This document shows positions 22,090 to 55,954 of a DNA stretch of 64,000 nt, in pieces (the stretch's first letter is position 1; each line of letters opens with the position of its first letter). The DNA is taken from NCBI GenBank assembly GCA_017654855.1, contig CM030333.1, positions 4,216,001-4,280,000 on the forward strand, read 5' to 3'. This stretch comes from Podospora anserina. Lineage: Eukaryota. The notes under the pieces are model-generated. The model saw only the letters and a program-made list of their open reading frames with translations, ran no database searches and was not told the DNA's origin. A program made the position numbers and the translations under genes.

Positions 22090-23590
22090 TTAGAGAAACC
22101 CCCCTTCGCCAGCACCGAAGACACCGACGCTGCCGCGCCATCCGCAGCGATCACGCTCGCTCATCGAAGTTGGCGACTGCGGTGGCAGGGGTGCTGGTGG
22201 AGCAGCCCGGGGATGGAGGTGGTGAAGACTCTGAGGTGGTGATTGCGGCATGGGAGGGTCGGCCGCTTCGCCGTTGCTCCCCCGGCTGCTGGTGTTGCTT
22301 GTGTTGGTCTGGACCAGCAACAAGCTGCTCGTACTGCTCAGCCTCTTGGTGAACTCGCTAAAGCTCAGGCGTTTGGCGCTCGAGTTGGATTGCCGCTTTT
22401 CCGTCTGGCTTCGTTGCAGAGGAGGGGGCGAGCCTGGGCCGAGGTTGGACAGTGAATCCTCGCCCAGCGCCGTTGAGGGAGAAGAGGCAATGATGGTCGC
22501 CAGCTGTGGTTGGGAGTGTGTTCTTTGAGACATGCCTGGCCTCGTCCGGTTGCCAGAGTAGCCTGTCTGGGGTCGAACACCGCTACTCGATGACAATGCC
22601 ATTAGAGCCTCATGGTTATAGCTAAGCGGGGTCTTGATCGAGTGAGTTCTTGGTGGCGGGTGAGGTCGGTCTCGTAGGTCTGGTCGTCCAGAAATGTAAT
22701 TCAAGGCCCGCTGAGCCGAACTGTGGTGGGATGAAAACCGGTCACCGTCCAAATCCGCCTCATCAAATGCCCCATCGCTATCGTCATCATCATCGTCGTC
22801 ATATTCCGAGGAATCATCATCCAAGTCCCAAGCGCTTTTCAGCCCAGTTTGTTCGTCCAGGGCTGAAACTGACGCTGAAGCCGCGGCGGCTGTCTCTGCC
22901 TTCCGCCTGGCATCCTCAGCTTCTCGCTGCCTCCTTTTGTCATCCATGTCTCGCATAAGAGCATCAAATCGGGCCAATGAAGTCAGTTTCTCCTCGCCAG
23001 GAACTTCACGTTCTGAGCCGGGAATGCGCCGCATTTGGAAAGCACGATCCAGAATGGTTTCCCGTGGCCCTGGAGGCGATGTACCGGCATCCATAATAGG
23101 CGCAAGTGGTGTTGGGCCCGAACTGACACTCCCCCGTTCCCTCACCGGTGAGCTGAGAGCCGAGGACCGCCCTTGTGCCGAAGTCCACCCCTCGATAAAC
23201 TCGCCCTGGTACTCGCCAACGGTGGTGGCCGGGGACGGGAGGTCGGCCGGGAGCATAGTGGTGTAATTCTGGAAAGCCATATGGTGCGTCTGAATCGAGC
23301 TCGTGGCCGACGAAAGATCACTTCGCTTGGATCGCAGACTTGGTGAATCCGAGAAAGTCACAGGGCGGTCGCGCCCAGAGTGCGTCGTGTGGCCCCTGGT
23401 GAATCCGGGTCGCGGTCCAGCATTCCCGCTGCCTGGCCTCTGGCTGTCGCTTAATTCCCTTGGACGGGTAAAAGGGTTGACAAATGTTGGCGAAGCGGGC
23501 GTGACCGGGCTCAGGGGCGCTCTGCCTGGCGGCATATTGGGCTGAATGAGCTGCTGGATGAAGCGAGACCAGTCCTGGAGATTGTATCTG

Positions 23591-23621
<31 letters not shown>

Positions 23622-24201
23622 GTTGCTCATCCAGGGTACGGAGCAACAGCTGTGCCGGTCCTGTGTCCTTGTTGGACGTGAAGCCAGCCGTACGACTTGA
23701 GCGTCGTTTCCGCAGCTTGTCCGCAATCGGGTCTGGAATAATGTTGATGACCAGAGTCGGGAGGACAGGTCCTTGTTTACGATGGGCCATCATCTGCACC
23801 TGACAGTCGGTGATGCTGTTGATTGAGTACTGCTGTGAAGGTTCTTGGTCGTCCTATCGATGCCACATGTTAGGTCACGCCACCCTTCGAATCGGTTCTC
23901 CTCGTCTTTCCCAAAGCACAACTCACTTTGGACTTGTAGATCGACAGATAGATGCCTTCGGATGGCACTCTGAACAGCTCCCTGGGAGCCGAGCTCCTGT
24001 TGGACGGCGCGCGGATGATACCGGCCGTCCGGTCCCGCTGGGGGCCACCCACAACCAGATATCGAGGCTGGTGACACAAGGTCGTCAGTACAACTTGTCC
24101 ACTTGCCGGTCTTCTCAACAGCATCCTTCTCAACACACCTTCCACAACGCCCTCCCAATGATCGTGCCCCTATCCGGGGGCACGCTCAAGTATCCCTCCA
24201 T
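22090..24201 (-). CDS. Fungal hypothetical protein with a PH-like N-terminal domain and an S/P-rich tail
   Basis: ATG at 24201 (MEGYLSVPPDRGTIIGRALWK); introns 24138-24068 and 23926-23854 keep the frame (PRYLVV..IYLSIYKSK|DDQEPSQQYSINSITDC). MEGYL..WKPRYLV..LSIYK resembles the start of a PH fold. Confidence 0.8.
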
Positions 24202-29953: not shown

Positions 29954-32900
29954 TCACCACGGTGAATACCAGTCTCTTGCCTTTCTGACCCTGGGACTCT
30001 CCCAAAAGTCGTTGGTTGGGGAGGGCCAGCGTTGGCGGCGGATTGTTTCCATGTTTGGGAGGAGGGTGCCGTGTGGTGGGTGTTGGAGTTGGATCCTGGG
30101 TTGCTGTTGACCTTGGGTGGTGGTCTGCTGCTTGCTGGATTGTTGACTCGGGAATGTGGAAGGCTGACCCTGAGTGGTAGTAGTTGTTGACTGCTGCCTC
30201 TGCAGCTCAACGTCTCCCCCCAACTCCCTCTCCCCATCCCACTCATGACGCCACCCCTCCTCCAACCTCATCAACTTGCCCACCAACCTCTCATGCTCCT
30301 CCGTCGCCCCATCCTCCCCACACAACTCTCTTCTCAACCGCTCCATCCGGCCATGTATCATGGACTTCTCCAGCTCCTCCCACTCCGCCTGCTGCTCGTC
30401 CCGTGGCGGCTGCTCCCTCCCCTGCCTCTCCGCCTCCAACCTCCCCAACTCAGCTCTCAACCGACAATGCTCCCCCAACGCGCCCCCCGTCCAGTCCCGC
30501 CATAGATCCGGTTTGATCTCGTCCAACCTACTTTTTATCCTCTCCCTCTCTCTTGTATACTCCTCTTCTTTCCGCTGCTCCTCGGCCCAGTCAGGATGGA
30601 CAGGCACCCGCTGCAAACACCACGACTGCCCCGGCCCAGAACGGTACATATCAAGGTTATTGACGTAATGCTCCCAGTCGACACCCCCGTCGGGATCGTT
30701 GACGTCGGCTTCGGTCGCCGAGTCGTATTGGATGTCTGCGAGAGCCATCAGATCTTCGTCTTCGACTTGTGCGATGGATTGCTCTGCTTCGGGGACGGAC
30801 ATGGATTCTAGAGGTTGGAGGTAGGGGGGTAGTGGGGGAGGGTGTGAGTCGAGCGTTGTGAGGTCCGAGTCGGAGGGGGAGGGGGGTTGGATAGGGAACG
30901 GGGGTGAGAGGTGGAAGTCGGGGGAGGGGGGAGGGGGGGCGGATGGGTCAAGTGGTGCTATTCCGGGGAAGTGGAGTTGGGGGGGTTGTTCGGGTTGGGG
31001 CTGGGGGGGAGGGGATGGCGAGGGGGGTGGTTCTGAGGAGGATGAGGATGAGGGGGGAGGCGGGGAGGGGGTGCCGAATGAGTCCGAGTCTGAGGGTGGG
31101 GGTGGTGGTGTCATGTATTGGCCTGACATGAAGGTACTAATTTCTTCGGGGGGGATGGGGATGGTCTCGAGTTCGGAGTCGTTGAAGTCGAGGTCGGAGG
31201 AGGAGTTGGCGTCTGGGGGGGAGTGTTGGTGGAGGGTGATGTTGGAGGGATCCCAGAGGTGCTGTTCGGGGGGGAGGTGAGTGGTCGCTTGACTGATGGC
31301 GTGGGCGCCGTGAGAGGGGGATAGGTTTTGTGAGGAAGGGAGCTCAGGGCCGAATAGAATGGGGTACTGCTCTGATAGGGGAAGGGCATTGAATGAGGCT
31401 GGGTTTGGGGGGGCAGAGTTGGGGGGTGAGGACCAGATGGTGTCGAGGTGGTTGTCGTGGTTGATGACGTCGGCTAGGGCTGGGGGAGGGGGGGACTGAA
31501 GAGGAGGAGGAGGAGGAGGAGGAGGAGGAGGTGGTGGTGGTGCTGGACGGAGAACAACAGTGATTTGGGGGCTGTCGATTTCCATTTTGTCATCCTCGAA
31601 CTCCTCCCAGCCTTCGTCGTCAAACTCTTCCGACTCAGCGTCGTAGCCTTCGTCTTCGCCCGTGTTATGGTCTGGGTCAATGATTTCCATCTCCACGTCC
31701 ATATCCTTATCCACGCTCTCGGCCATATCCTGGTCCATGTTAGTGTCCCTATCATCGTCTATGTTCCCAGGCGCAGCCTCAACGACCTGATCGTTCACAA
31801 CCCCAACATCCTCCAGCCTGGGCAGCTTCGTGGCCCTAGGCGGAGACTCCGACTCATCACTAGACACCACCGTAGCCGCCGCCATAGCAGCCTTCATCCT
31901 GAACAGAACCTGCCGGTGAATCTCAGCCGTCTCCTCCTTCCAGTCCACCTTCGGATCCGGCACCTTGATCTTAAACTTCTTCCCCTTAAACCCCATAGCC
32001 GTAATGTTATACACATCCTCCAACTTCCTCCTCGCCAACCTATACATATCCATCCCCTTGTTCACCCTCTCCTTCCTCGCCATCTCCCTCTCTTCTTCCT
32101 TGATCATCTCCTCCCTCTCCTCGTCCGTCAACTCCTTCCACCTCACCTTCCTCGCATGCTTGGGCTGCCACATCCCCCTCTCAAAGGGCACATTCCCGCA
32201 CTCCCCGTTGACAATCTCATTCTCGTGCAACCCCGCCACTCGTTCCAGCCCAGTCTTTTCCTCCTCGTCCTCATCACTCATGTACATCTCCTCCAAACTC
32301 GGCACCAGATTATCCCCAGTCTCGTAGTCGACATGTCCATACGTCATCATCCCAAACAAACACTCCCACCCGCACATCGCCCCCAGCCCCCTCCTCCCCC
32401 CCTCCATAACAACCAGCTCCTCCGGCCTCATGAGAATCTCGGTCCCCCCCCTCTCCCACCCCTCAAACTGCCCGACCCCCATGTCATAAATCTGCACCCC
32501 CATCACCGGCTCCCCACTCCATATCTCCCTATTCTTCGGCGGCACGTCATACCTCAGCTTCAGCTGATGTATCCCCGCCTCGGTGGTGTACCCCTTCCTC
32601 CTCAAAAACTTCCACAGCGGACTCAGCCCCCTCTGCCCCATAAACAACCTCGCCAGAACAGTCGACCCCGGCCCAAAGACGGGATCGTTGAACAAGAGGA
32701 CCAACTTTACAAAAAACAGCTGGAAGCGGTACAGATCATCGTCGGTGAGGAAGCTCTCGTTGCAAAAGAGGGTGAGTCTCATCCTGTTGGTAGGGCACTC
32801 TAACACCAGCCAGATCTTTTGGAGGGTGGCGTCCGTTTCCGGGAGCGTGCGATGACCGTGTCTGGCGAGGACGGCGAGCATGTCACGCACGCGGGCCTCC

Positions 32901-33853
32901 CTCTGCACCACGTGCTGCAGCCAGAGAAGGCCTGGTACAAGACGGGTTTTGCTCCCGTCGCAATTGACGTGCATGTCGTCTTCCCCCAGACAGGCCTGGC
33001 CCGGTCGGGGGAGGGAGATTTCGTGGTCGGAGCGGGTGCACTTTCGGCCGAGGGGGTCGGGGATGAACCAGTGGGCGTAGACGGGGGACGAGTAGATCCT
33101 CGAGGCCACGGGGGCCATGTGCCGGGACCAGGCAAAGACAAACTTGCGCATGTTGTGGTTGAGGGTGTTGTGGAAGCCGCGGTGGAGGGCGTGGAGGTTG
33201 ACGAGGTCTTTGGGGCGGAGGTGCTTGCAGACTTCGATGAGGAGCTCGGGGGTCGTGCAGAGGGTTGACAGCAGGTCGATGGTCGGTTTGGGACGTTTGG
33301 GGGCCCGTTGTGCCTTTTGCCAGGTTTTGATCGATTGCTTCAGGGAGAGGAAACGTTCCCTCGCGATGGCGCGGTATTCCCTCTGCAGCAAGGGGTTGTT
33401 GTTCTCGAGGCCGTGCTCGATCAGCTGTGACTCCCAGGTGGCTTCAAACTCCTCTTCGTTCTTGCCAAGGACGGCTGCCTCATCTTCGGACTCTTCCTCG
33501 TCAGAGGAGGCGAATTCCTTGGGACGGCCGTGGTAGACGAGCCGGACTCTGTCGGAAAGGTTAGAGACGGTAGGGATGATTCTCCCGTTGGCAACAACCG
33601 AGCGAGCCTCCTCCTCCCAGCGGGTCATGTGGAGGACGATGGAAGGGACATCGGGCCGGATACCAAGGGCCTCGATCTCTTCCTCTGTTCTCTCTTCGCG
33701 AGCGACAACGTTGTCGAAATAGATCCGCTGGGCCTCATTTTGCGGGTTGGCGATGAGGTCGTCCAGATCCCAGTCGTCATCGTCATCGTCAAAGAAATCC
33801 AAATCCTGTATGTCATCAACCCAGTCGTTGTCTTCGAGGTCGATGGCACTCAT
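29954..33853 (-). CDS. Large hypothetical protein (~1300 aa) with an F-box-like motif and acidic/proline-rich regions
   Basis: Single long ORF; first ATG at 33853 (MSAIDLED). LLSTLCTTPELLIEVCKHLRPKDLVNLHALHRGFH resembles an F-box. Confidence 0.8.
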   Translation of the reverse strand: MSAIDLEDNDWVDDIQDLDFFDDDDDDWDLDDLIANPQNEAQRIYFDNVVAREERTEEEIEALGIRPDVPSIVLHMTRWEEEARSVVANGRIIPTVSNLSDRVRLVYHGRPKEFASSDEEESEDEAAVLGKNEEEFEATWESQLIEHGLENNNPLLQREYRAIARERFLSLKQSIKTWQKAQRAPKRPKPTIDLLSTLCTTPELLIEVCKHLRPKDLVNLHALHRGFHNTLNHNMRKFVFAWSRHMAPVASRIYSSPVYAHWFIPDPLGRKCTRSDHEISLPRPGQACLGEDDMHVNCDGSKTRLVPGLLWLQHVVQREARVRDMLAVLARHGHRTLPETDATLQKIWLVLECPTNRMRLTLFCNESFLTDDDLYRFQLFFVKLVLLFNDPVFGPGSTVLARLFMGQRGLSPLWKFLRRKGYTTEAGIHQLKLRYDVPPKNREIWSGEPVMGVQIYDMGVGQFEGWERGGTEILMRPEELVVMEGGRRGLGAMCGWECLFGMMTYGHVDYETGDNLVPSLEEMYMSDEDEEEKTGLERVAGLHENEIVNGECGNVPFERGMWQPKHARKVRWKELTDEEREEMIKEEEREMARKERVNKGMDMYRLARRKLEDVYNITAMGFKGKKFKIKVPDPKVDWKEETAEIHRQVLFRMKAAMAAATVVSSDESESPPRATKLPRLEDVGVVNDQVVEAAPGNIDDDRDTNMDQDMAESVDKDMDVEMEIIDPDHNTGEDEGYDAESEEFDDEGWEEFEDDKMEIDSPQITVVLRPAPPPPPPPPPPPPPLQSPPPPALADVINHDNHLDTIWSSPPNSAPPNPASFNALPLSEQYPILFGPELPSSQNLSPSHGAHAISQATTHLPPEQHLWDPSNITLHQHSPPDANSSSDLDFNDSELETIPIPPEEISTFMSGQYMTPPPPPSDSDSFGTPSPPPPSSSSSSEPPPSPSPPPQPQPEQPPQLHFPGIAPLDPSAPPPPSPDFHLSPPFPIQPPSPSDSDLTTLDSHPPPLPPYLQPLESMSVPEAEQSIAQVEDEDLMALADIQYDSATEADVNDPDGGVDWEHYVNNLDMYRSGPGQSWCLQRVPVHPDWAEEQRKEEEYTRERERIKSRLDEIKPDLWRDWTGGALGEHCRLRAELGRLEAERQGREQPPRDEQQAEWEELEKSMIHGRMERLRRELCGEDGATEEHERLVGKLMRLEEGWRHEWDGERELGGDVELQRQQSTTTTTQGQPSTFPSQQSSKQQTTTQGQQQPRIQLQHPPHGTLLPNMETIRRQRWPSPTNDFWESPRVRKARDWYSPW

Positions 33854-34796
33854 GGCGAGGTGGAGGAGGGACAGTCGTCTTGTCTGTGGTCTTTGGTCGT
33901 GGTAGGCGAACTTTTGGAATGCCTTCGGGGTCTTTGTCAAAGCAGTTGTAACAGTGAGAAAATGTGAATGGAGACAAGGTCATTAATTGCAGAAAAGACG
34001 AGATGATTTGTAGTTTTTTAACTGAATATTTCTGTGGGCTGGCGGCGGTGTGGTCGACATGCATGTCTATTCACAGCTATTGTCAATGGTCAACAATAGG
34101 AGCTCTCAAGAACAATAGGAGCAGCTTATGCGTCACGAGCCCACCCACCACCAGGCACCCGGCTCATAGCCAACCAACTTCCAGCTCTTATCTCTCTCTA
34201 CAATAAGAGTTCAGCTCTTGTCTAAAGAGACCTATTCAACCCGATAAAACAGAAGTCACAAGTAATTACACCGCAAAGAAGAAACCTGGAAAAAAACAAT
34301 AGGGCCCAGAAAGTACATTCTAGGAAAACACTACTACTAGCTTGCCGTCTGCGGCGTGAACACATACAAAAGAAACAGGAAACATGCCATAGCCTCCGAC
34401 TCCTTTTCTACAACCAAGAAGAGGAAGAGGAAGAGGAATAGTACGAGGTTGGACGAAAATGCCACCGTGAATAACCATGCTGCTGTCGCTCACACTTCAA
34501 AAAGTTTTACCACCCCGAGTCTGTCGCTTGCCCTCGCCGGATTGCTGCGCGTTCCTGACCAGCTCCAGATACTCATCGTACACAGCCTTGGGCCGGGGAC
34601 GGTCGCTGTCCTCGCTGCTGCCTTGAGACGATGTGTCGTCGCGAATCTCCAAGTCCGCCATGGGCAATTGCTGAGATACACTCTGGTTGTTCCTCTTGTG
34701 CCTGAGGACAGTGCTCTGGTCGCTTTCCTCCTGCTTCACCTTCACGCCGCCGGGCTCGCCGTGTTTTCTCTTGATGCCTTTCTTGAGCCCTCCTTC

Positions 34797-37067: not shown

Positions 37068-40000
37068 ATGGGGTGAGTATTCCATCCGCATATCTCTCGG
37101 CCTCAGCATGCGACTGACAGACATGATCCAGTGTTCCCAAGTTTTTCAGATGGCTCTCTGAGCGTTACCCGGCGATATCGCAACTCATTGCCGAGAATCG
37201 AATTCCCGAGTTCGACTGCCTCTACGTGCGCCAGCCTTCTCGAGTCGGGAGACTATACCCATGTTGTGCCAGTCGCTAATATGTTGGTGATTTTCAGTTG
37301 GATATGAATGGTATCATTCATAATTGTACCCACAAGGACTCGGATGATGTTCAGCAGGCCCGTATTAGCGAAGAACAAATGTTCATCGCTATATTCAACT
37401 ATATAGAACATCTCTTCGGTAAGATCAAACCGAAGACGCTGTTCTTCATGGCCATCGATGGTGTCGCCCCGCGCGCCAAAATGAACCAACAGCGTGCTCG
37501 TCGCTTCAGAACTGCTTTGGACGCTGAGAGGGCCCGTGATAAGGCCATTCAGGAGGGCAAAGAGTTGCCCAAGGAGCCACCGTTCGACTCCAATTGCATC
37601 ACGCCAGGTATGTTGCTGCCACCAGACGTCTGGTTTTCGGTCTGCTGACCTTGACACAGGAACTGAGTTCATGGCCAAGCTTACCCAGCAGCTCAAGTAC
37701 TTCATCAACAAGAAGGTGTCTGAAGACAAGGACTGGCAGGGTCCCGAGATTGTCCTGTCAGGGCACGAGGTCCCTGGTGAGGGTGAGCACAAGATCATGG
37801 AGTACATCCGCAACGCACGCGCGCAACCGGACTACAACCCCAACGTCCGCCACTGCTTGTACGGCCTCGATGCCGATCTCATCATGTTGGGTCTCCTGAG
37901 CCATGACCCACACTTCTGCCTCCTCCGAGAAGAGGTTCAGTTTGGCCGCGTCAAGGACCAGCACAAGGTTAAGGAGTTGGAGCATCAAAACTTTTACCTG
38001 ATGCATCTCTGCATAGTTCGAGAGTACTTGGAGCTGGAGTTCCAAGAGCTCAAAGTACCGGGCGCAATCCCCATGCCGTTCGATATGGAAAAGGTCATTG
38101 ATGACTTCATCTTGATGGCCTTCTTTGTGGGCAACGATTTCTTGCCCAATCTTCCTCGCTTTCACATCAACGAGGGTGCGTTGGCCACCATGTTCAAGAT
38201 TTACAAGGAGGTACTTCGAAAGTGTGATGGATACATCAATGAAAATGGCAGAGTGAATCTCAAGAGGCTAGCCATTCTCTTGGAGGAGCTTGGGAGAGAA
38301 GAGTACCGGTTCTTTGAGCATGAAAACGAAGATGCCGGCTGGCTGCGGGGCAAGAAGATGCTTGAACATGACGAGGCCGAGATTGCCAGGGCTCGTGTCA
38401 AGGGCAAGCTGATCATCAGCTCAGATCAAAAGACGCTGTGGAAGACAAAGATTCGAAAGTTTCTGACCAACCGGAATTCGCAAACTCTTGATCTCGGCAC
38501 CGGCCTAAATGCGGCCGACCGCAAGTTCGTCCAGGATCTGGCTGATGCTGCGCACATTGAGTGGGCTACCAAGGAGGACGACGATGGACGTCGTCACCTT
38601 ATCCTGACCTTCCCTGTGAGAGACGACGAAGACGAGGAGGACGAGGAAGCGCAGTCGGCATCTCTTCGCATTGTGAAGAAGTACGACAGTGCCCAAGTTC
38701 TCGACCTGACAGGTGCCGATGCCCAGTCCGCCATGGAGGCCAAGTACAAGCAAAAGTTCCAAGAGTGGAAGGACGGCTACTACAAGGACAAGTTCCCCGA
38801 GTGGGCCGAGGGGAAGCACGAAGATGAGTTGCGCAAGCTCGCAGAAAACTACGTTCAAGGTCTTCAGTGGGTGCTCTTCTACTACTATCGTGGAATTGCG
38901 TCGTGGCCGTGGTTCTACCGCTATCACTACTCCCCTCTGGTCTCAGATGTCGTCAAGGGTTTGGGTGCAGACCTCAACTTCACCCTGGGCCAGCCGTTCA
39001 GGCCGAACGAACAGCTCATGGGTGTCTTGCCCGACCGCAGTAAAAGCATCGTGCCTACCGTATACTGGCCCCTCATGACGGACAAGGACTCGCCCATCAT
39101 CGATTTCTATCCCCGGGATTTCGAGCTCGACATGAACGGAAAGAAGATGGACTGGGAGGCCGTCGTCAAGATCCCCTTCATTGACGAAAAGCGCCTCCTC
39201 GACGCCATGGCTCCCAAAAACGATCTTCTTTCCGACGAGGAGAAGGCACGCAACGACTTCGGTGTGGCCCTCAAGTTTACGTATTCTCCAGATGTCGATT
39301 TTGAGTATGCCTCATCCTTGGTGGATGTTTTCCCGCACATCCCTCACTGTCACTGTGTCGAAAACATCTTTGATCTTCCTCCGGTCGAAGGTCTTGAGTA
39401 CCGCGCCGGCCTCACCGATGGCGCTCTGTTGAATGCCGAGGCTTTGGCTGGATTCCCATCTCTCGCCACCCTGCCTTATACGGCTAGCCTTGGCTTCCAT
39501 GGAGTTAATGTGTTCAAGCAAGACAGCCGCAACGAAAGCATGGTGGTGAACCTCATCGGCACCGAGATGAGAACCAAGGTCGAGAGTGCCAAGGTCAAGC
39601 TTGGACAGCGCTGCTTTGTTGGTTATCCTTTCCTCCAGGAGGCCAAGATTGTTGGGGTATCTGATGAACTCTTCGACTATGTCCTCGACGGAAACGGTCA
39701 GGTGGCCACCCTTCACCATGGCCATCGTGAAATCGAAGAGTTTGGCAAGAAGGCCAACAAGATTGAGAACTTTTACAGCAAGCGTATGGGTATCTTGATT
39801 GGCCCTGTCGAGTCCCTGGTCAGGGTCCAAATGTTGAAGGGTCTGATCAAGACCGACGAGGGCGCGACAATCAAGGAGTACGGCGACATCCCGGGCATGG
39901 AGACGGACTATGCTTCTCAGATCATTGTCGACGAGGTTGCCAACGAGGACGAGCGCTTTATCGAAAAGGCCGCCTTGCCGCTTGAGGAAGAGTTCCCCGT

Positions 40001-41297
40001 CAAATCGATAGGTTTCTTCTTGGGCGACTTCAACTATGGTCAGCCATTGGAAGTATCTGGCTACACCAACGGAAAGCTTCAGGTCTGGCTTGCCACCCTT
40101 GAAAGCCGGGAGCCTGACTTTGCGAAGCGCATCATTTACGAGTCGGAGCGGGGCAACTCTTACATGCCATCCTACATGGTCGCCAAGCAGCTCGACTTGC
40201 ACCCCTTGGCGCTCAGCAAGATCACCTCATCTTACTTTGTCAAGACGGTTGGTGATCTTCGCGTGAACTTGGGTCTCAACCTCAAATTTGAGGGTAAGAA
40301 GCAGAAGGTGCTCGGGTACTCTCGCAAGTCTCAGACCGGTTGGGAGTTCAGTAGTGCTGCCGTGCACCTGATTGTTCAGTACATGACCAACTTCCCCGAC
40401 TTTTTCGCCGGTGTCAAGAGGAACCCTTCGGGCGCCGAGTTGAAGGAAACCGATCTCTGGAGTGACCCTAATCTGGCCACAGCCCGGGTCAAGGAAATCG
40501 GTGCCTGGCTCAAGACGCTCAAGACCAACTCGATGGAGCGCGTCCCTCTTGATGCCGAGCAGCTGGACTCTGAGGTCGTCATGAGGATTGCTGCGGAGGC
40601 TGACAGTCTCAAGCTCAGCGCTATTCCTACTGTTCCCAAGAAGATGAATGGCGTGCCCAGGAATGCGCTTTTGAGGCCCGACGATGCCGAACATCGCCTG
40701 GGCAACCAGCACTTCGCCTTGGGAGACCGCGTGGTGTACGTTGCCCGCACCGGCAAGGTCCCCATCGCCTTCCGCGGCACTGTGGTTGGTATCAGCCGCA
40801 CCCCCACGGCCAAGTTGTTGGATGTCGTCTTTGACGTCACGTTCATGAGCGGCACTACTCTCGGTGGCCGCTGTCCGCCGTTCCGCGGGCAGACTGTGCC
40901 GTCTACTACCCTTCTCAACCTTACCGGACGGCAGGTTGTTGCCGGTTCCAAGAACCAGCTCGCTCGCCAGCCCGTCACACCATCAGTTACCACCTTGACT
41001 ACTCATGGCGGGTATCACATGCACCAGGGCAAGCGTCTGCAAGATGCCGGTGCTCCTTCTCAAGCTGCTTGGGGACGGGGTGGACGGGGTGGTCGCGGCG
41101 GTGGCAGAGGTGGGTACGGTGGACCCAGCCAGGACGGCAGCAATGGTTCTGCTTCTGCTCCGCCGATGTATGGGGCTGTTCCGCCCCCTTCCAGCCTTGA
41201 TGCTCCTAGGGGAGGAAGAGCGCGCGGACGTGGTCGCGGCAATGGTGGTCAGAGGGGAGGGCAACAGCACAACAACCTTGCCTTCCGCCCTGCGCCT

Positions 41298-41328
<31 letters not shown>

Positions 41329-41516
41329 TTGATGGTCAGAATGGAGAAAATTCACGTGGAGGCCGTGGCGGGAGAGGTGGCTTTAGAGGAACGCCTTATG
41401 CTGGCCGGGGCAGAGGTGGTCCTCGTGGTGGCGCTAGAGGTGGCCAGGGTCAGGGTCAGGGTCAGCAGCAGCAGCAGCAGCAACAAAGCGTGGCGATTCC
41501 TCCTTCCGCGAGCTAG
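37068..41516 (+). CDS. XRN1: 5'-3' exoribonuclease 1
   Basis: MGVPKFFRWLSERYP, LYLDMNGIIH, AIDGVAPRAKMNQQRARRFR, PGEGEHKIMEYIR, YGLDADLIMLGL, GNDFLP. Introns 37073-37131, 37226-37297 and 37608-37659; long XRN1-type C-terminus with an RGG/polyQ tail. Confidence 0.96.
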
Positions 41517-42324
41517 ATGTTCTCGGGGGGCTATCCCTGAGCTTAACGTTACCACGGATCTAATGGGTTTGGGGCGGGCACCTCATGAATGACGATGACG
41601 ATGACATACATCAAGGCCTGGCTGGGTTTGGTTTGGACTTGGAACAATGGACAGGTTGGGGAAATGGTTTCCGGCTATATGGTTCTGGGTTCAAAAAAAT
41701 GTCTAGAGGGCGGGTATGGATTGTCATCAGGGTCAGCGCGGAATTTCTGTTGTTGAATTGGTATGGTGTATGGGTATATATCAACAAGCGTATAGTAGTT
41801 GATGATTGAGTATTGTCTTGTTGAAGCAGCGCTGTAGGGATTAGAAATTGGAGTAGCCATTGTGCAACGAGGTGTCAAGTTCAAAATGTGGTCCAAATCT
41901 CAATCAGAAGCCCACCCTCTGATGGCACACACCTCTCGACGAAACCGCCAACACAGAGGTTGCATAAGACGGGTGGTTTTACAGTCTTGGACATTTAGCA
42001 TGTCACCATGATATTATGAAAGCCTGTCGTACACTCACTACCTTTCGATTGAAAGAAAAGCTGGTTTGTTTGCACAACTGTGTTAAAGGGCAATTCCTCA
42101 GTATTTTCAATGGTATCGTTATGTCTCGATATACACTGTTTTCTATAATTTTACCACCTCATCCATCAAGTATTTAAACCCCCGTCCCCCCCGACCCTCC
42201 CATTGGACTTCTTTCCCTCATCATCAGCATCATCATCATCATCATCATCATCATCTCCATTCACCACCAGCCAAAACAACCAAGTAAGTCAACCCCACCA
42301 ACTAACCAACCCAACTCCTACAAA

Positions 42325-42619
42325 ATGCCTTCCCCCACCATCGTAACAACCCCTTCCCCTCTGCGACCACTGCCTCCGTTCAGCAGTGGGAACATCCCCC
42401 TTCTGCTACTACAACACCCGGCTCGGGTGCGGCAGCTTGGGGTGTGAGCACGAGTGCTTTAAGTGGAAGAAAATGCCGGTTTTTGAGCCGGAGAGAAAAA
42501 AGAAGAAGGGGGGTGAGGATGAGGATACAAAGAAGAAGAAGAAGAAGAAGGGGGGTGAAGAAAACAACAAGAAGAAGAGGGACGGCAAGATTGAGAGCCT
42601 TGGATGGTGTGGTATATGA
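42325..42619 (+). CDS. Small Cys/His-rich protein with a Lys-rich tail; ATG and Cys motif are out of frame by one base (error, pseudogene or frameshift)
   Basis: caaaATG at 42325 reads MPSPTIVTT; the +1 frame from about 42350 reads LPLCDHCLRSAVGTSPFCYYNTRLGCGSLGCEHECFKWKK. Upstream GTATTTAA at 42170. Cys spacing is identical to the 43699-44031 ORF. Confidence 0.55.
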
Positions 42620-42846
42620 AGTTTGATTAAGATGGATTTGACTACCCTCCCTTGCCATAGGTGAGTTTTTGCAAGATACACAGTTGGAGGGAAGAGGTAA
42701 GTCAGCCAGGACGTGATGATTCTTTCTCTCCCTGGGGGAGAGAGGGGTGTGTAGATGCCCTGGATGATGATTAGCTAATATGATAGGTTTTTTTTTTTTG
42801 GTTTTTTTTTGCAAACCCAAACTAATTAATCTTTTGAATTTGTGTG

Positions 42847-42847
<1 letters not shown>

Positions 42848-42880
<33 letters not shown>

Positions 42881-42905
42881 TAATAATGATAATAATGATA
42901 ATAAT
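42848..42905 (+). repeat. (AAT)n microsatellite
   Basis: Read directly from the sequence. Confidence 0.9.
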
Positions 42906-43698
42906 CGTGATGATGTATGTGACCTTCCATTGTTAACAGAATTACCTTTTCAGTACGCGACGCAAGGATCCAATCGATCGCTTGAAATTGTGCAGAATAA
43001 TTGTGATGATGTGAACTTGTTATCTTGACCTTTTCCTTAGAAAGAGTCGAAATAAAGATGGCATTTGTATTAATATTGTGATGTGACTTTTGGGATTATA
43101 ATAGCATTTGGGAGAAAGAATGGTTGATATATAGCTGTATAGAAACAATCTAGCTAGCTAGGTGGTATTGTATAAATCATGGCATATTTAAACGCTGGTT
43201 GCCTGGGTGTGATGAGGGGCAGGCATCACCACATATACATATACATATACATATATATATATATATATACATACATACCACTGGGGCAAGCAAGCATTGA
43301 CAGCCACTCTTGTAGTTTTTGATGGCGATCACGCTGGTATCGTGCAGCTGTCCGTCCGTCCTGCCCTGCCGGCCGTGCGACGCTTGGGTTGAACGAGAGA
43401 ATATACCAAGTTACGTCCACATACATATATATATATATATACTTTGCAAATTGGAGACTCTTGCTTTTCAGCTTGGGAAAAAGAAATTATTATTGATACA
43501 GTTGTTCGCCAAAATTTAAATAAAAAGTTACTGTTTTACCAACCCGAGAAGAAAAATATAGTACCATGCTCATCTCCACCAGGGAGATAGATTATCGTGT
43601 GTCCTTTCCCTAACAATCGATCATTCTTGTGTTATCCACTCACCTCGCACATCATACATTCCGAGTGCTCACCTGTTCGTTCCTGACAATCTTGTTTG

Positions 43699-44031
43699 TT
43701 ACTCCCAGCGCCAAATTTTCTCCCCCTTCTTGAACCTGTCAGTGTAAACGCCCCTGCTCCTCTCCCGGCGTTGAACCCGCCCTTTGGGAGAGAAGTCGAT
43801 GTCGTCGTGCTCATCGTAGTAGTAGTAGTCAGAGTAGTCGTACCCTTCTTCAAAGTGTTCCTCAAGGTCAGTAGCTGTGTACCTTCTGACCAGAAGTTCT
43901 GATAGGTGGTGTACGCAGGATGGGTCGTAGCACCCGGGGTTGTAGGTGTCATTGCAGCAGACAACTCCTGCTCTGGTTGAGGCCCAGCAAGGCCCGCAGA
44001 AGTGGGGATGGGGACGTGTCATGCCAGCCAT
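43699..44031 (-). CDS. Small Cys/His-rich protein (110 aa) with an acidic Tyr-rich segment and a basic tail
   Basis: MAGMTRPHPHFCGPCWASTRAGVVCCNDTYNPGCYDPSCVHH...; upstream GTATTTAA at 44295-44288; probable paralog of the 42325 gene. Confidence 0.6.
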   Translation of the reverse strand: MAGMTRPHPHFCGPCWASTRAGVVCCNDTYNPGCYDPSCVHHLSELLVRRYTATDLEEHFEEGYDYSDYYYYDEHDDIDFSPKGRVQRRERSRGVYTDRFKKGEKIWRWE

Positions 44032-44911
44032 GATGCCGTTTTGTTGGGGGATGGGGGGTTAAGAAAGGGTTGACCTTACTTGCTTTGCTTTGGGGGGCAA
44101 GTGTGTGTGTGTGTGTGTGTTGGGTTGCAAGTGGTAGTTAGTCTGAAGACAATAGAACGTGTATGCGGTATGTGTGTGTGATGTGACAAGTTGGTCTGTG
44201 ATCAAAAGTGAGCCTTGATTGGAATGATGATTGATGATTGCGATGATGAGAAAAGAATGGTAGTGGAAGGTGAGAGGTAGAAAGGGCTTAAATACACGAG
44301 AGATAGGGCCTTGAGCAAGAGTTTGTTGGCAAGGACAGCAAGATTGAATGAACAACAGTTATCTTGAGAGCAGTACAATAGCTTTGTTCGAGAGTTGTAG
44401 CCTAAGAGGTCAATCTTAGATGGTGTGATAAGTCAAAAATGGTGGGTTGGTGATGGGATTGGGCGATTGTTTTGATAGCCCCTTTTTGGTTCTTTGTTTT
44501 GTTACATGGCGGCCTGACAGTCACTCCGAGTTCTCAACAAAATCGGTGCCTTGAGTAGGTATCCAAGATAGCCTACAATGTTCGAGATTGTCTAAAGGCC
44601 ATGCACAGACATCGTGGAGAGACATGAAATTCGAGGACTGTAAACAAAGCAGTCATGCGTATAATTTCTCTTGTATATATCATCCAAATAAGCCTTCTCG
44701 CACCCAAAAAGTTGTTGCTTAGTCCATTAAGCCTCTGGTATCGTGGAATCGGATGTAAAACCTCGTCCAAAAAAAAGAAGATTGGTATCATAGAATCGAA
44801 ATTTGTGTGTAAAATCTTTCCCACCGAGAAGCAAATCCCCCATCAAAGTTCCCTTCCCTTTCATAACCATTCTTTCAACAGTTCGAGACATCTCTCATCA
44901 ACAAAAGAAAT

Positions 44912-46671
44912 CTAAGACCTCCCCAACGGCGAGGGGGAACTCTCAACTAGTGTGTCCGGGCTGCTAATGCCGCCACTCCCATCACTCAACTCCCTCTTTA
45001 CCGCGGGAATGGTAGGCGGTGACAGCAAACCCTCATCCTTGAGGACATCCTTCCCCTTGCCCTTGTCCTCGGTCTTCTCTTCCTTTATTGTTCGCAGAAT
45101 TGGTGGCTCCGCAACAACAGGTTTGATCGTCTTTTCTGGTTTGGGCTGCTGTGTTGCTGTTGTTGGCTGAGGCGTGGCGGTGGAAGCAGGCTCAACCACA
45201 ACACCAGTCAGGGGGGCTACTGGTATGATCCTCTTGTCTATCTTCAGCACCTCCTTCGCCAAAGCCCGGATCCCATCGTAGATTATGTCCGGCTGCTCAA
45301 ACAGCAGTAGTGATGACGGAGGCTGCGAATCAACCCGGGAAGTGTGCAGCACCGAGTACGAGCCGTGCGCCCAGGCAGGTGGATAGAATGTCGACTGTGC
45401 TCTTCCCTGGTTTCGACCAATACCAGACAAATCAAGCTGCTCCACATCGTCCTTTTCGTTCGTTGCTGCTGGTGCTGCAGTCGCTGTCGAGGAAGAGTAC
45501 GAACTCGCAAAGACCGTAATCGCAACTTTCGGCTTTGTTGGCGTTTTCGCCGGCAGCTGATGAGAAGAGTGATGCAGCGAAGTCCCCGACCAAAACCGCA
45601 ACAGCCCTTCCGGTCCAGGTAACCAGGCCAAGTTCGTAAGTGTGATCAATTCCTCTCTTGTGAATGTCCCTGTTGATCCTACAACCCCACCATTGCCGCT
45701 GGCGATTTGTCGCAGGTGCCTCAACACAAAAGCCAGCATTCCAACTGGGGAGTCACACAGTCCGTATGCCAGGGTATTCGGGTCTCTTATCTCTGTGATT
45801 GGTGGTGAAGAAGAGTGGGAGTAGTACCCCAGGAAGTCCCGCTCTTCATAGCCAGCCACACCACCCCTGAAGAACCAGGCTAGAGACCATTTTGCGAATT
45901 CGATGGGTGAGCTTGTGAGTTTTGGCGCGGAGAGGACAGGGGAGATTAGATGGGTTCCCAGGCAGGAGTCAGAGTAGGTCGTTGAGATGGCGTGGGCGAG
46001 GTGGAAGTCGATTCGGGATGGCGAAGAGGAGCCGGGGGACGTGTTAGTTGTCAGGTAGTGCCTATAGCCCAATCGAGAGGTCATTAATGTATTAAATATC
46101 GAGGCCGTGGCGTCTATGGGTGAGCGGTTCGCGGGAATGGAGTCGGAGAAGCCCAATCCTGGCAAAGAGGGTATGACGACATGAAAAGCTTGATGAGTCG
46201 GGTCGGATGGGGTTGTGAGGGGGTTGATGAGGTGGGAGAGGGAGAGGTTAGTTAGTGGGAATGGTGGCAGCACCAAGAGAGGAAGAGCGTTGGCGGAAGA
46301 GGACCGGGCATGGATGAAGTGAATCCTGAGAGGGGATGCCGATTCCGACAAGGCAATCGAGGTCCGAAACTGGGGGATGTTGGCGTTGAGGTTGGACTCG
46401 ATATCGCGAAAGTTGTACTTTTCAAGCCAGTAGTCAATCAGCGGCTCGATAACAGGCTTTGGCTCCCACCACTCGGTCGACTTTGGCAGAGACCCCTCAT
46501 GAGGCAGTCTAGTGAGCTCAAGCTTCTGTCGTGCGAGGTGGAGATGCCTCGTCGGAACCTGTACAACCTGTCAGTCTCACGAACCACTCTGAAAACAAGA
46601 CGGACACTTACATGTATCTTGTACGGCCTGACCTCATCGGCAGCCGGCGATCCCACCACAGCGTCCGCCAT
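44912..46671 (-). CDS. Microsomal epoxide hydrolase-like alpha/beta-hydrolase (EHN domain) with degenerate catalytic motifs
   Basis: VRPYKIH, intron 46611-46559, then VPTRHL..KLELTRLP..LIDYWLEKYNFRDIESNLNANIPQF; IHFIH; FHVVIPSLPGLGFSD; LCDSPVGMLAFV. Confidence 0.82.
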
Positions 46672-53534: not shown

Positions 53535-54167
53535 AATGGGCGCTCAATGGGCGGCGACACTCGGTCGGAGGAACTGTCTCGCGATGGTTGGCGATGCGGT
53601 AAGATGCGCTCAGTGTTTTGAGAGCTGTAAATATCGTCAGAGCTATGTTGATTAGAAGTTCATGTCGCGATTGTCGTGGCGACGGCGGTCTATAGTTGTT
53701 GACCCCTGTTGATAGTGGTGGTTAGTAAGATGCGAACAGCCGCTCCCTCCTTGCGTCTCGACTTCCCGTGTGTCCGCTCACTGTTCTGGGCAAAAAGTGA
53801 CGGTCGCGTCAAAACATTGAATCCAGGTCCCCAGTTCTCCAGGTCGATGCAAACGGGTTGCAGGGGTCCTGGCAGCTGTGAGACTTGGCATTTGCAGCTG
53901 TCTGTTTCCGGCAGGCACAACAGAGCTCCCCCCGCCATCGCGCATTTCCAAGCAACCGCCCCGCCCCCGTGTCCTGTCCGGCCCAAAACCTCCAGCTCGC
54001 ACCAAGGTCCCGGATCTCCACCCGTCCCGGCCCGGCTGCATCTTCCAGACACTAACGAACAGGGCCCCTTACACCACCAGCGCGGGGGGCCACAACTTTT
54101 GTCTTCTTTGCATCACAAACCAACACAGCACAGTACAGCACAGCACAATCAAAGCCCCTCGCCCAAC

Positions 54168-55954
54168 ATGGGGACCTTTGATAACCTGCTGCTACAGCTT
54201 GACGAGGGCGTCACAGGCCTCTTCAAGCAGTGGAATATCTGGACCAGTCTCATCGTCACCCTCTTCGCCGGCCTCATCACCTACCAGGTCTCGACCCGCC
54301 AAGATCCCGATATTCACCCCTTCCTCCTCGCTCGTCAGTCCCAGGCTTCCCCTGTCCGCCAGCCCAAAGAATCCTCCGTCTACCGGCCTCAAGCTGCCCC
54401 CCATGGTCTGTCTCTTCACACCGGCTTAAACGTCAAGGACCCCGGCGCCAACAAGTGGGCGAGGGGCCGTGATGGTGATCTCAGGGATATCTGGCGGCAG
54501 ACCCTCGCCGGCGTCCAAGAAGGTGACGACAAGGGCGCAAAGGGCCGTATCCTCACCGTCGAGGGCACCGAGAACGTCAAAGAGCACCATCTCGACGCTC
54601 TTACTCGGCAAATCAACCTCATCGGCCAGCATCTTGTCGACCAAGGTGGCAACCACGTGGCCGTCTACCTGCCCAACTCTGTCGAGTTGATCGTTACCCT
54701 TTTTGCCTGTGCCTTCTACAACTTGAACGCTATCATCCTCCCCTTCAACCAACCCGACGCCGCCGTCATCGACATGCTCCGCCGTTCCGCCGCCGACACG
54801 GTCATCACCGCCCCTGGATCTTTCCCTTTTGACGTCGTGGTTAAGAACTACCCCTCCCTCCGCCAACTGGTGTGGGTGGTCGACGAAGGAAGCAAACACA
54901 TGGACTGGAACGAAGTACCCCAGGGCACCGGCAGCAAAGTCAATGTTGCCACCTGGCAAGACATCATCAGCGACTCCCCCGTCGAAGCAGGCAAGACCCT
55001 CCCCCCTCTTGAGGACCAGTCCGAACCAAAAGACATCACCCTCTTCTGGCAACAAGGCCCCGGGCAGGAAGAGGAAATGGTCAAGTTCACCACAGGCAAC
55101 ATCGTCTCCGCCATTGCAGCCCAGCTAACCGCCATCCCCACCGCCCGCCGTCTCAGCCCCTCGGATCTTTTCCTCCCTGCGGACTCGCTGGCAAACTCGC
55201 ACACTTTGGTTCTCACCCTCACGGCTCTGTTTTCCAATTCCTCGGTTGCGTTCAACTCTTCCGCGTCCGAAGCGCCCTCTTTGTCTGCGATCCTCAGCTC
55301 TCCGGCCGTTTCTCCTACTGTCATAGCTGTCACACCTTCTGCTCTGTCCCAAACTCACAAGGAGGTCTCGTCTGCTCTCAAGTCATCAACCATAGGCAAG
55401 GACCTCCACTGGCTTTTGTCTCGGTCCTTGGCCGAAAGTGGTGCTTTCCCCGAGAGTGGGTTTCTGACCAACTATTACAACCAAGCTTTCCGTCCCAAGT
55501 TTTCGGGCGGAAAGAAGTTGAGGTTGGTGTACACTGCTGAGAGGATTAACGGGGGTGGGAAGGTGAGGTTGAGCGGGGAGGAGCTGAATGATTTGAGGTT
55601 GTATACCGGTGCGAGGGTGGTGTACGCGTTGACGGCGGCGAGGGTTGCGGGCGCGGTGTGTCAGACGAATGTGTATGATTATCGGGGAGGGGAGCACTTT
55701 GGGCCGCCGGTGGCAAGTGTGGAGGTTGTGTTGAGGGATAAGGGGGGGGTGAGGAATAGTGATGAGGAGTCGCAAGGAGAGGTGAGTTTTGAAAAAAAAA
55801 ATTGAAAAAAAGAAAAAAAAATGAAACCCGAGAGAATATGGTTTGCTGACAAAGATGATAGATTGTGGTCAGGGGCCCGGCTGTTGCTGGAAAAGAAGCT
55901 GGGTTGGGGGTTGTGGCGAGGGTGAGGGAGGATCATACTGTTGCGTTGATTTAG
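54168..55954 (+). CDS. Membrane-anchored long-chain acyl-CoA-synthetase-like (ANL fold) protein lacking the AMP-binding P-loop
   Basis: N-terminal hydrophobic anchor; VAVYLPNSVELIVTLFAC; FTTGNIVSAI; HFGPPVASVEVVLRD..GE, intron 55782-55861, then IVVRGPAV; TAG at 55954. Confidence 0.75.

Follow-up and report, generated by a model that had tools for sequence, protein, structure and literature searches.

A 64,000-nt stretch of the Podospora anserina genome (assembly GCA_017654855.1, contig CM030333.1, positions 4,216,001 to 4,280,000), which we call the window and whose own numbering we use, contains two very small transcription units sharing a Cys/His scaffold. They lie between XRN1 (37485-41516, plus strand; five Xrn1 Pfam domains) and a minus-strand gene at 44912-46570, which carries an epoxide hydrolase N-terminal domain. 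The two units, here named plus unit and minus unit, are in the convergent, tail-to-tail orientation, and their motifs are about 1.5 kb apart. An earlier note, made from the letters of this DNA, had placed convergent genes in an AT-rich gap between XRN1 and the hydrolase gene, and both GC content and domain annotation agree with it: GC is 0.28-0.45 in the gap and 0.275-0.365 across 42700-43299 in the spacer region, and it climbs to 0.50-0.58 across both open reading frames (ORFs). The span given there, 42170-44295, ends at the outer ends of two matching TATA-like 12-mers.

The features of the locus are given below. The contigs mentioned come from four runs (X1, X5, X6 and X10), the nature of which as RNA is guessed ("RNA?"), and they show no strand.

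42170..42181, plus strand: TATA-like promoter 12-mer GTATTTAAACCC of the plus unit; with at most one mismatch, the pattern is found at only two places in the window
42219..42257, plus strand: (CAT)n run in the plus 5' leader, mirrored in the minus unit at 44224-44250
42266..42782, plus strand: plus unit, covered by probable RNA contigs in 4/4 runs, colinear and unspliced
42325..42447, plus strand: first-AUG ORF of the plus transcript, 40 amino acids (aa), no Cys, start context ACAAAATGC; it overlaps the whole motif, out of frame
42347..42621, plus strand: open Cys frame of the plus unit, from after the TAA at 42344-42346 through the TGA stop; scaffold at 42362-42451, then a Lys-rich tail
42718..42741, plus strand: hairpin-like motif in the 3' untranslated region (3'-UTR) of the plus unit, about 100 nt after the stop and common to the minus unit (79% over 24 nt, E 0.1)
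42783..43506, no strand: spacer between both 3' ends, AT-rich (by GC) and microsatellite-rich; its sole contig cover is two depth-2 contigs of X1
43507..44239, minus strand: minus unit, covered by probable RNA contigs (X1 records 5-7 at depth 26-46, X5 at depth 3-4)
43573..43596, minus strand: hairpin-like 3'-UTR motif of the minus unit, some 100 nt downstream of the stop
43699..44031, minus strand: intact ORF of 110 aa, running from ATG to stop, its start in a good context; scaffold at 43909-43998, then an acidic Tyr-rich part, then a basic tail
43848..44079, minus strand: alternative 232-nt intron (GTAAGG ... CTGAC ... AG), from the 5'-UTR into codon 62
44284..44295, minus strand: TATA-like promoter 12-mer GTATTTAAGCCC of the minus unit, the mirror of the plus-unit 12-mer

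A Cys/His scaffold shared by the two copies

Both peptide strings quoted in the earlier note are present in the DNA, CDHC...CEH at 42362-42451 on the plus strand and CGPC...CVH at 43998-43909 on the minus strand, and both fit the pattern C-x2-C-x10-C-x6-G-C-x4-C-x-H. Their tails are charged as described there, Lys-rich in the plus copy and acidic Tyr-rich, then basic, in the minus copy. In the six frames of the 64-kb window, the strict pattern matches exactly twice, at these two places (plus strand 42362-42451, minus strand 43909-43998), and it was found in none of 200 shuffles. The looser pattern C-x2-C-x5-30-C-x4-C-x-H yields the same two places only, with 0.115 matches expected per shuffle. 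The sharing of the scaffold is real and far beyond chance. The positions C12, C15, C26, C34, C39 and H41 are invariant in 3/3 sequences, namely both copies and an ortholog from Podospora pseudopauciseta, and each copy has six Cys, made up of a Cys5-His module and one Cys of varying position. As in a generic zinc-binding mini-domain, at least four invariant Cys/His ligands occur within a short distance of each other and make up two knuckles.

When compared by BLASTP alone, the plus protein and the minus protein are not significantly similar (12.7 bits, E 1.1), and thus the case for their relatedness rests on the pattern statistics and on the evidence for a duplicated unit. This lack of a significant alignment is what one would expect if the common pattern were due to chance. 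Against this stand the absence of the pattern from all 200 shuffles as compared to two observed matches, their distance of only 1.5 kb in a mirrored arrangement, their matching promoters and their location in the frames with the best GC content at third codon positions (GC3). Chance is, in our opinion, effectively refuted as an explanation.

Zinc binding by the Cys5-His module is putative, being guessed from its CxxC / CxxxxCxH chemistry. In structure prediction, one of the checks proposed in the earlier note, AlphaFold2 gave no usable fold, with a mean pLDDT (predicted local distance difference test) of 33.7 for the minus copy (3-row alignment) and 48.2 for the plus Cys frame (single sequence). 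No confident residues were obtained in either copy.

Evidence for a diverged inverted duplication

Comparison of the plus unit with the reverse-complemented minus unit by blastn revealed colinear similarity, in which the promoters (42161-42242 and 44304-44224) align at 69% over 83 nt (E 1.9e-6). This region includes the two TATA-like 12-mers, which are identical at 11/12 positions and occur nowhere else in the window (at most one mismatch), and it is followed by a CATC-type repeat. Both 5' leaders have CAAGTAAG and then TCAACCC; the minus copy has one G more. CAA|GTAAG(T/G), followed by TCAACCC, is located 41-48 nt upstream of an ATG, at 42284-42289 in the plus unit and at 44074-44079 in the minus unit. 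The minus unit uses it as a splice donor, and at the GTAAGT at 42284 of the plus unit no joint was seen in any of the four runs.

In the 30-codon core, the codon is identical at 7/8 conserved residues, and the remaining 22 codons are identical at 20/66 nt, which is approximately random. The ligand positions (5 Cys, 1 His and 1 Gly) are retained in both copies, the codons between them are saturated, and the promoter is better conserved between the copies than the coding sequence. GC3 is highest in the Cys frame, with 0.67 in the minus copy (0.54 and 0.45 in the other frames) and 0.71 in the plus copy; in the plus core it amounts to 0.78 versus 0.46 and 0.51, the latter belonging to the frame of the AUG at 42325. 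The codon log-odds score is also best in the Cys frame, 0.025 for the minus and 0.231 for the plus copy, on a scale on which real genes of the window score 0.20+-0.13 in frame and -0.32 off frame, and intergenic DNA -0.39. The retained codons at the ligands, together with GC3 and codon usage of the Cys frame, suggest selection at the protein level on both copies during most of their history. The proposal of the earlier note that they are diverged paralogs, which kept the Cys, His and Gly positions, is supported by the seven identical codons, the similar promoters and the best GC3 and codon score in the Cys frame.

Cysteine-framework peptides under diversification typically have a conserved framework, saturated loops and a better-conserved promoter. 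The same combination is seen here with six Cys per copy, so that one could think of fast-evolving exported or processed peptides with three disulfides and hypervariable loops, similar to defensins, toxins or ribosomally synthesized and post-translationally modified peptides. Nevertheless, we consider this very improbable. Metal sites typically have such an invariant His behind C-x, both tails are long as well as charged, and among the neighbours, all of them housekeeping genes, no processing or tailoring enzyme is found. Moreover, a signal peptide, as in secreted peptides of the defensin- or effector-like kind, is not recognisable by inspection, in line with the earlier note: the N-terminus of the minus protein, MAGMTRPHPHF, has no hydrophobic core or signal sequence, judged by inspection only.

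The minus copy and its ortholog

The statement that both genes encode Cys peptides holds for the minus copy with its intact 110-aa ORF; it is not confirmed for the plus copy, which has a TAA upstream of the first Cys and no in-frame ATG before the motif ends. The ortholog of the minus protein is QC763_0042410 of P. pseudopauciseta (XP_062769073.1 / KAK4670403.1), an "uncharacterized protein" of 112 aa with no annotated function, no domain and no paper. The two proteins correspond over their full length and at high identity (E 4.8e-68, 100% coverage); they differ by six substitutions, located in the extreme N-terminus and in the tail, and by an in-frame YY insertion. Residues 4-48, including every Cys and His, are identical, and according to our own arithmetic the chance that none of six substitutions falls into this part is approximately 0.04. 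By this relationship, the window belongs to the P. anserina species complex. The gene models of the four sister species were generated by MAKER using SNAP and GeneMark-ES training files and external protein evidence, as described in an excerpt of PMC10936905, and the model of XP_062769073.1 presumably derives from them.

The minus copy is already in databases as a hypothetical protein. Contrary to the expectation that gene predictors would easily miss such genes, it has not escaped them entirely, since the ortholog is annotated in P. pseudopauciseta. The window's own protein is not in the protein collection that we used.

Two differences to the window were detected in the X1 and X5 contigs in the minus gene, 43885 T>C (synonymous, Arg49) and 44025 C>G (Gly3 to Arg). 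Arg is also the residue of the P. pseudopauciseta ortholog at position 3. Probably both differences are strain polymorphism; the change at 43885 corresponds to A>G on the transcript strand and may conceivably reflect RNA editing.

The plus copy: a Cys frame without a usable start codon

In the plus copy, the Cys frame is open for 91 codons, and the TAA at 42344-42346 sits five codons ahead of the first Cys. No in-frame ATG exists before 42473, which is past the motif, and from the TAA to the first Cys even a near-cognate start is missing; no codon was found that could initiate the conserved domain in its own frame. The ATG at 42325 is the only one in 42180-42330, and the Cys frame is +1 relative to it. 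Since the contigs match the genome across the plus unit with 0 gaps, 0 other letters and no joints, the frame break is real and is rescued neither by splicing nor by assuming a sequencing error. Judged by its sequence, the plus copy is not translatable into the Cys domain by standard rules, and it is probably a frameshifted copy, that is, a transcribed pseudogene with its coding signature retained.

Alternatively, both copies could be translated as a working two-member family, with ribosomes reaching the plus Cys domain in an unconventional way, for example by a +1 frameshift out of the frame of the AUG at 42325. The +1 relation of the two frames, the 91 open codons with a GC3 of 0.71-0.78 and a codon score of 0.231, and the very high abundance of the transcript in one run (depth 1100) would be in line with such recoding. 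However, neither a +1 shift site nor a stimulatory slow or stop codon was recognised in the 15 nt from 42347 to 42361 when inspected by eye and compared with known motifs, the Cys frame lacks a near-cognate start, and a recent 1-nt indel in the C/T run explains the same facts more simply. We regard recoding as quite improbable.

Transcription and splicing

Several properties of the four runs are RNA-like. Their contig totals are 18-29 million letters, as compared to 36-37 million in runs containing 96-98% of the sampled words of the stretch; their contig cover is patchy and tracks gene units, and depths vary by orders of magnitude. As to transcription, one of the checks named in the earlier note, probable RNA contigs cover the plus unit in 4/4 runs and the minus ORF in 2/4 (X1 and X5, with no cover in X6 and X10).

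At the 3' end of XRN1, cover extends to 41841-41864 and then nothing follows until 42265; the spacer between the two units is almost bare. The contig stops at 41841-41864, seen in three runs, likely mark the end of the XRN1 transcript, approximately 330 nt after its stop codon. At 41841, the X10 contig runs into 19 foreign letters, which we take to resemble a sequencing adapter. The contigs of the plus unit start at 42266 (X5, X10 and X6) or at 42315 (X1), end at 42701-42782 and are identical to the window over more than 430 nt, with a depth of 1100 in X5 and 4.8-13 in the other runs. The true 5' end is probably further upstream and masked by the skipped repeat 42211-42265. The strand of the plus unit was deduced from the TATA motif and the orientation of the ORF.

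The shared 3'-UTR motif reads TCTCCCTGG.GGAGA, and several contigs of the plus unit end just upstream of it. The hairpins in the two 3'-UTRs fold, yet no better than shuffles (z of -0.77 for plus and -0.15 for minus).

In the minus unit, an X1 contig follows the window as far as 43847, and its next 30 letters are found again from 44080. This corresponds to an intron from 44079 to 43848, whose removal takes away the start codon together with the entire Cys domain; in the spliced form, the ORF beginning at the first AUG is out of frame and 60 aa long. The evidence for this intron is a loose contig end in 1/4 runs, absent from the listed joints, and unspliced contigs over the same region exist in X1 and X5 at similar depth. 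The GT-AG joint on the minus strand indicates that this strand is transcribed.

The spliced form could be the real RNA if both units were now non-coding, as transcribed relics of an extinct small gene family in which the Cys pattern is a fossil in decay and the minus ORF is open by luck. In addition to the contig that lacks the Cys domain, this would account for the missing start of the plus copy, for the weak codon score of the minus ORF and for ORFs which, apart from one species, are unannotated in the protein collection. It would also fit into the picture of the P. anserina genome, for which a re-annotation found 1732 unannotated transcribed regions, or nTARs (excerpts of PMC9801653). Under free decay, on the other hand, the two copies would not both retain 5 Cys, 1 His and 1 Gly amid saturated codons. 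Further, both still show the GC3 excess of the Cys frame, a second species has the minus ORF uninterrupted and with its indel in frame, and unspliced minus contigs are present at similar depth. Taken together, we find it rather unlikely that both units are now non-coding.

Searches for homologs and described families

No family of Pfam-A (zf-AN1, Zn_clus, Ecl1, copper-fist and metallothioneins included) or NCBIfam matched either protein at E<=10, and no PDB sequence was found at this threshold. In the ESM Atlas, the whole protein gave no usable match, and the best value for residues 1-50 was 0.78, below the level which shuffled proteins often reach. A word-based search with the minus protein recovered the ortholog only, with the plus protein 0/46 candidates at E<=1, and for longer or fused forms of the minus protein 0/24 candidates. 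The metagenome scan delivered 86 pattern matches, none of which was confirmed by tblastn. In the literature, only partial patterns of RING, AN1 and NBR1 type resembled the motif.

A profile built from both cores and the ortholog was compared with 1.84 billion representatives, resulting in two matches at E<=0.001, the top one being QC763_0042410. We rejected the second match, an 86-aa Logan-derived protein (E 1.1e-25), as a homolog, because it corresponds to this very gene with T in place of every C. Its changes are P>F/L, H>Y, A>V, T>I and CAA>stop, and it ends where a CAA would become TAA; judged by this sequence, the ORF was probably called from an assembly of bisulfite-converted DNA. ORFs from such assemblies can pass for distant homologs.

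The suggestion of an undescribed family is thus in part upheld. There is no match in Pfam, NCBIfam or PDB, but a homolog outside the species complex was not found, and a family beyond this locus is not supported. According to these comparisons, the gene is an orphan known so far only from the Podospora anserina species complex.

Comparison with known zinc and copper modules

The AN1-type zinc finger has the pattern CX2CX9-12CX1-2CX4CX2HX5HXC (as given in an excerpt of PMC9570247). Like it, the scaffold opens with C-x2-C-x10-C and contains a C-x4-C closely followed by His; it differs in its third spacer (7 instead of 1-2) and its Cys-His spacer (1 instead of 2), and it lacks the H-x5-H-x-C ending. 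The fungal Zn2Cys6 binuclear cluster has the spacing CX2CX6CX5-12CX2CX6-8C. It resembles our case as it is fungal and combines six Cys in approximately 30 residues with a CxxC at the start and basic residues behind. In contrast to it, the scaffold has x10 instead of x6 after the first pair, no second CxxC and an invariant His, and the minus protein is far shorter than such transcription factors and has no Pfam match. The third comparison is with metallothioneins and with the copper-fist Zn module, C-x2-C-x8-C-x-H. These share with the two copies the small size without a signal peptide, the clustered Cys, the C-x-H end and inducible promoters of TATA type. Compared to metallothioneins, the Cys density here is much lower (6 of 110), no CxC or CC runs exist save one CC, and there is no profile match. 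The scaffold fits neither the copper-fist nor the metallothionein spacing.

The two units are also similar to the P. anserina nTARs, which are short transcribed units outside annotated genes, some of them spliced. The difference is that in PMC9801653, as far as its main text and Table 3 go, proteins were predicted only for nTARs >1.5 kb, and neither peptide appears in them.

A model for the origin of the pair

With somewhat better than even confidence, we interpret the locus as a live minus gene for a small putative zinc module with disordered charged tails, accompanied by a plus copy that was disabled not long ago. The two units would go back to an old duplication, inverted and tail-to-tail, of a small gene with a TATA promoter. 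The minus copy at 43699-44031 would be the live gene, encoding a 110-aa cytosolic or nuclear protein, in which the N-terminal approximately 30 residues form a compact, presumably zinc-binding Cys5-His module and the remainder a disordered tail. Splicing from the donor in the 5'-UTR to the acceptor in the ORF would produce an isoform without protein and is probably unproductive or regulatory. The plus copy, derived from the same ancestor, would have been under the same constraint at the protein level until recently and would then have lost the continuity of its frame with the start codon, in this genome as well as in the strains of the RNA runs. A single base gained or lost in the C/T-rich run 42347-42361 would be enough to explain it. 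At present, the plus copy may be an abundantly transcribed pseudogene, or its transcript may have been put to another use. Translation, zinc binding, location in the cell and recency of the frameshift are parts of this model that we infer.

Several observations weigh against the model of a live minus gene. The runs are only guessed to be RNA, and translation of either copy is read from the sequence. One contig excises the Cys domain, and the mature mRNA could be this spliced, non-coding-looking form. With a codon score of 0.025, the minus ORF is intermediate between coding and non-coding distributions, and its Cys core taken by itself comes to -0.26. Long-term selection was deduced from a single pair of paralogs; in the minus gene, the RNA strain differs from the window by one non-synonymous (G3R) and one synonymous change, which is no sign of strong constraint. 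Additionally, the gene is annotated in one species only, the 110-aa protein of the window and six other local ORFs are absent from a 15-billion-protein collection by exact look-up, and protein and metagenome searches revealed no homolog beyond the P. anserina species complex. Finally, AlphaFold2 gives no fold, and the spacing fits no zinc-finger class that was checked.

It may even be speculated that the convergent pair with its conserved TATA promoters represents a new, fast-diversifying metal-binding mini-fold of Podospora or Sordariales, with both members functional. The minus gene would be switched by the domain-removing intron, and the plus copy would be decoded by a +1 change or would serve as a regulatory RNA for its partner. 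We give this idea little credence.

Genomic setting

The neighbours of the pair are housekeeping genes, encoding an RBBP4-like WD40 protein, XRN1, Hid1, MCM and Vps54. A biosynthetic or processing cluster is not suggested by the neighbouring genes of the window. Two long open frames on the minus strand, 29957-33979 (1341 aa) and 22093-23853 (587 aa), have no Pfam family at E<=0.001 and may be lineage-specific or low-complexity proteins. A 700-aa frame at 53703-55802 on the plus strand shows a weak, partial AMP-binding match (E 1.2e-11, approximately 100 residues); it may belong to an intron-split acyl-CoA synthetase or adenylation enzyme.

Microsatellites are abundant in the gap between XRN1 and the hydrolase gene, among them (CAT)n, (AAT/GAT)n, two (ATAC/AT)n runs in inverted orientation to each other, and (GT)n in the 5'-UTR of the minus unit. 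They are located at 42219-42257, 42850-42915, 43233-43275, 43418-43445 and 44093-44115, and contigs break at several of them.

Significance

At present, the finding is one uncharacterised orphan of modest value. Interest in it would rise if the scaffold were conserved across Sordariales or if the layout of the plus copy were conserved. Should the minus protein be produced and bind metal, the repertoire of zinc modules would gain a Cys5-His spacing not described so far, and the gene would be a neat and compact case of lineage restriction. P. anserina lends itself to genetic work, so that deletion, tagging and metal assays are easy in this fungus. A pair in which promoter and ligand residues were kept between housekeeping genes, while the rest changed, is useful for studying the birth, duplication and death of orphan genes. 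The plus copy would then represent the dying stage, in which the gene is still highly transcribed and its frame has just been broken.

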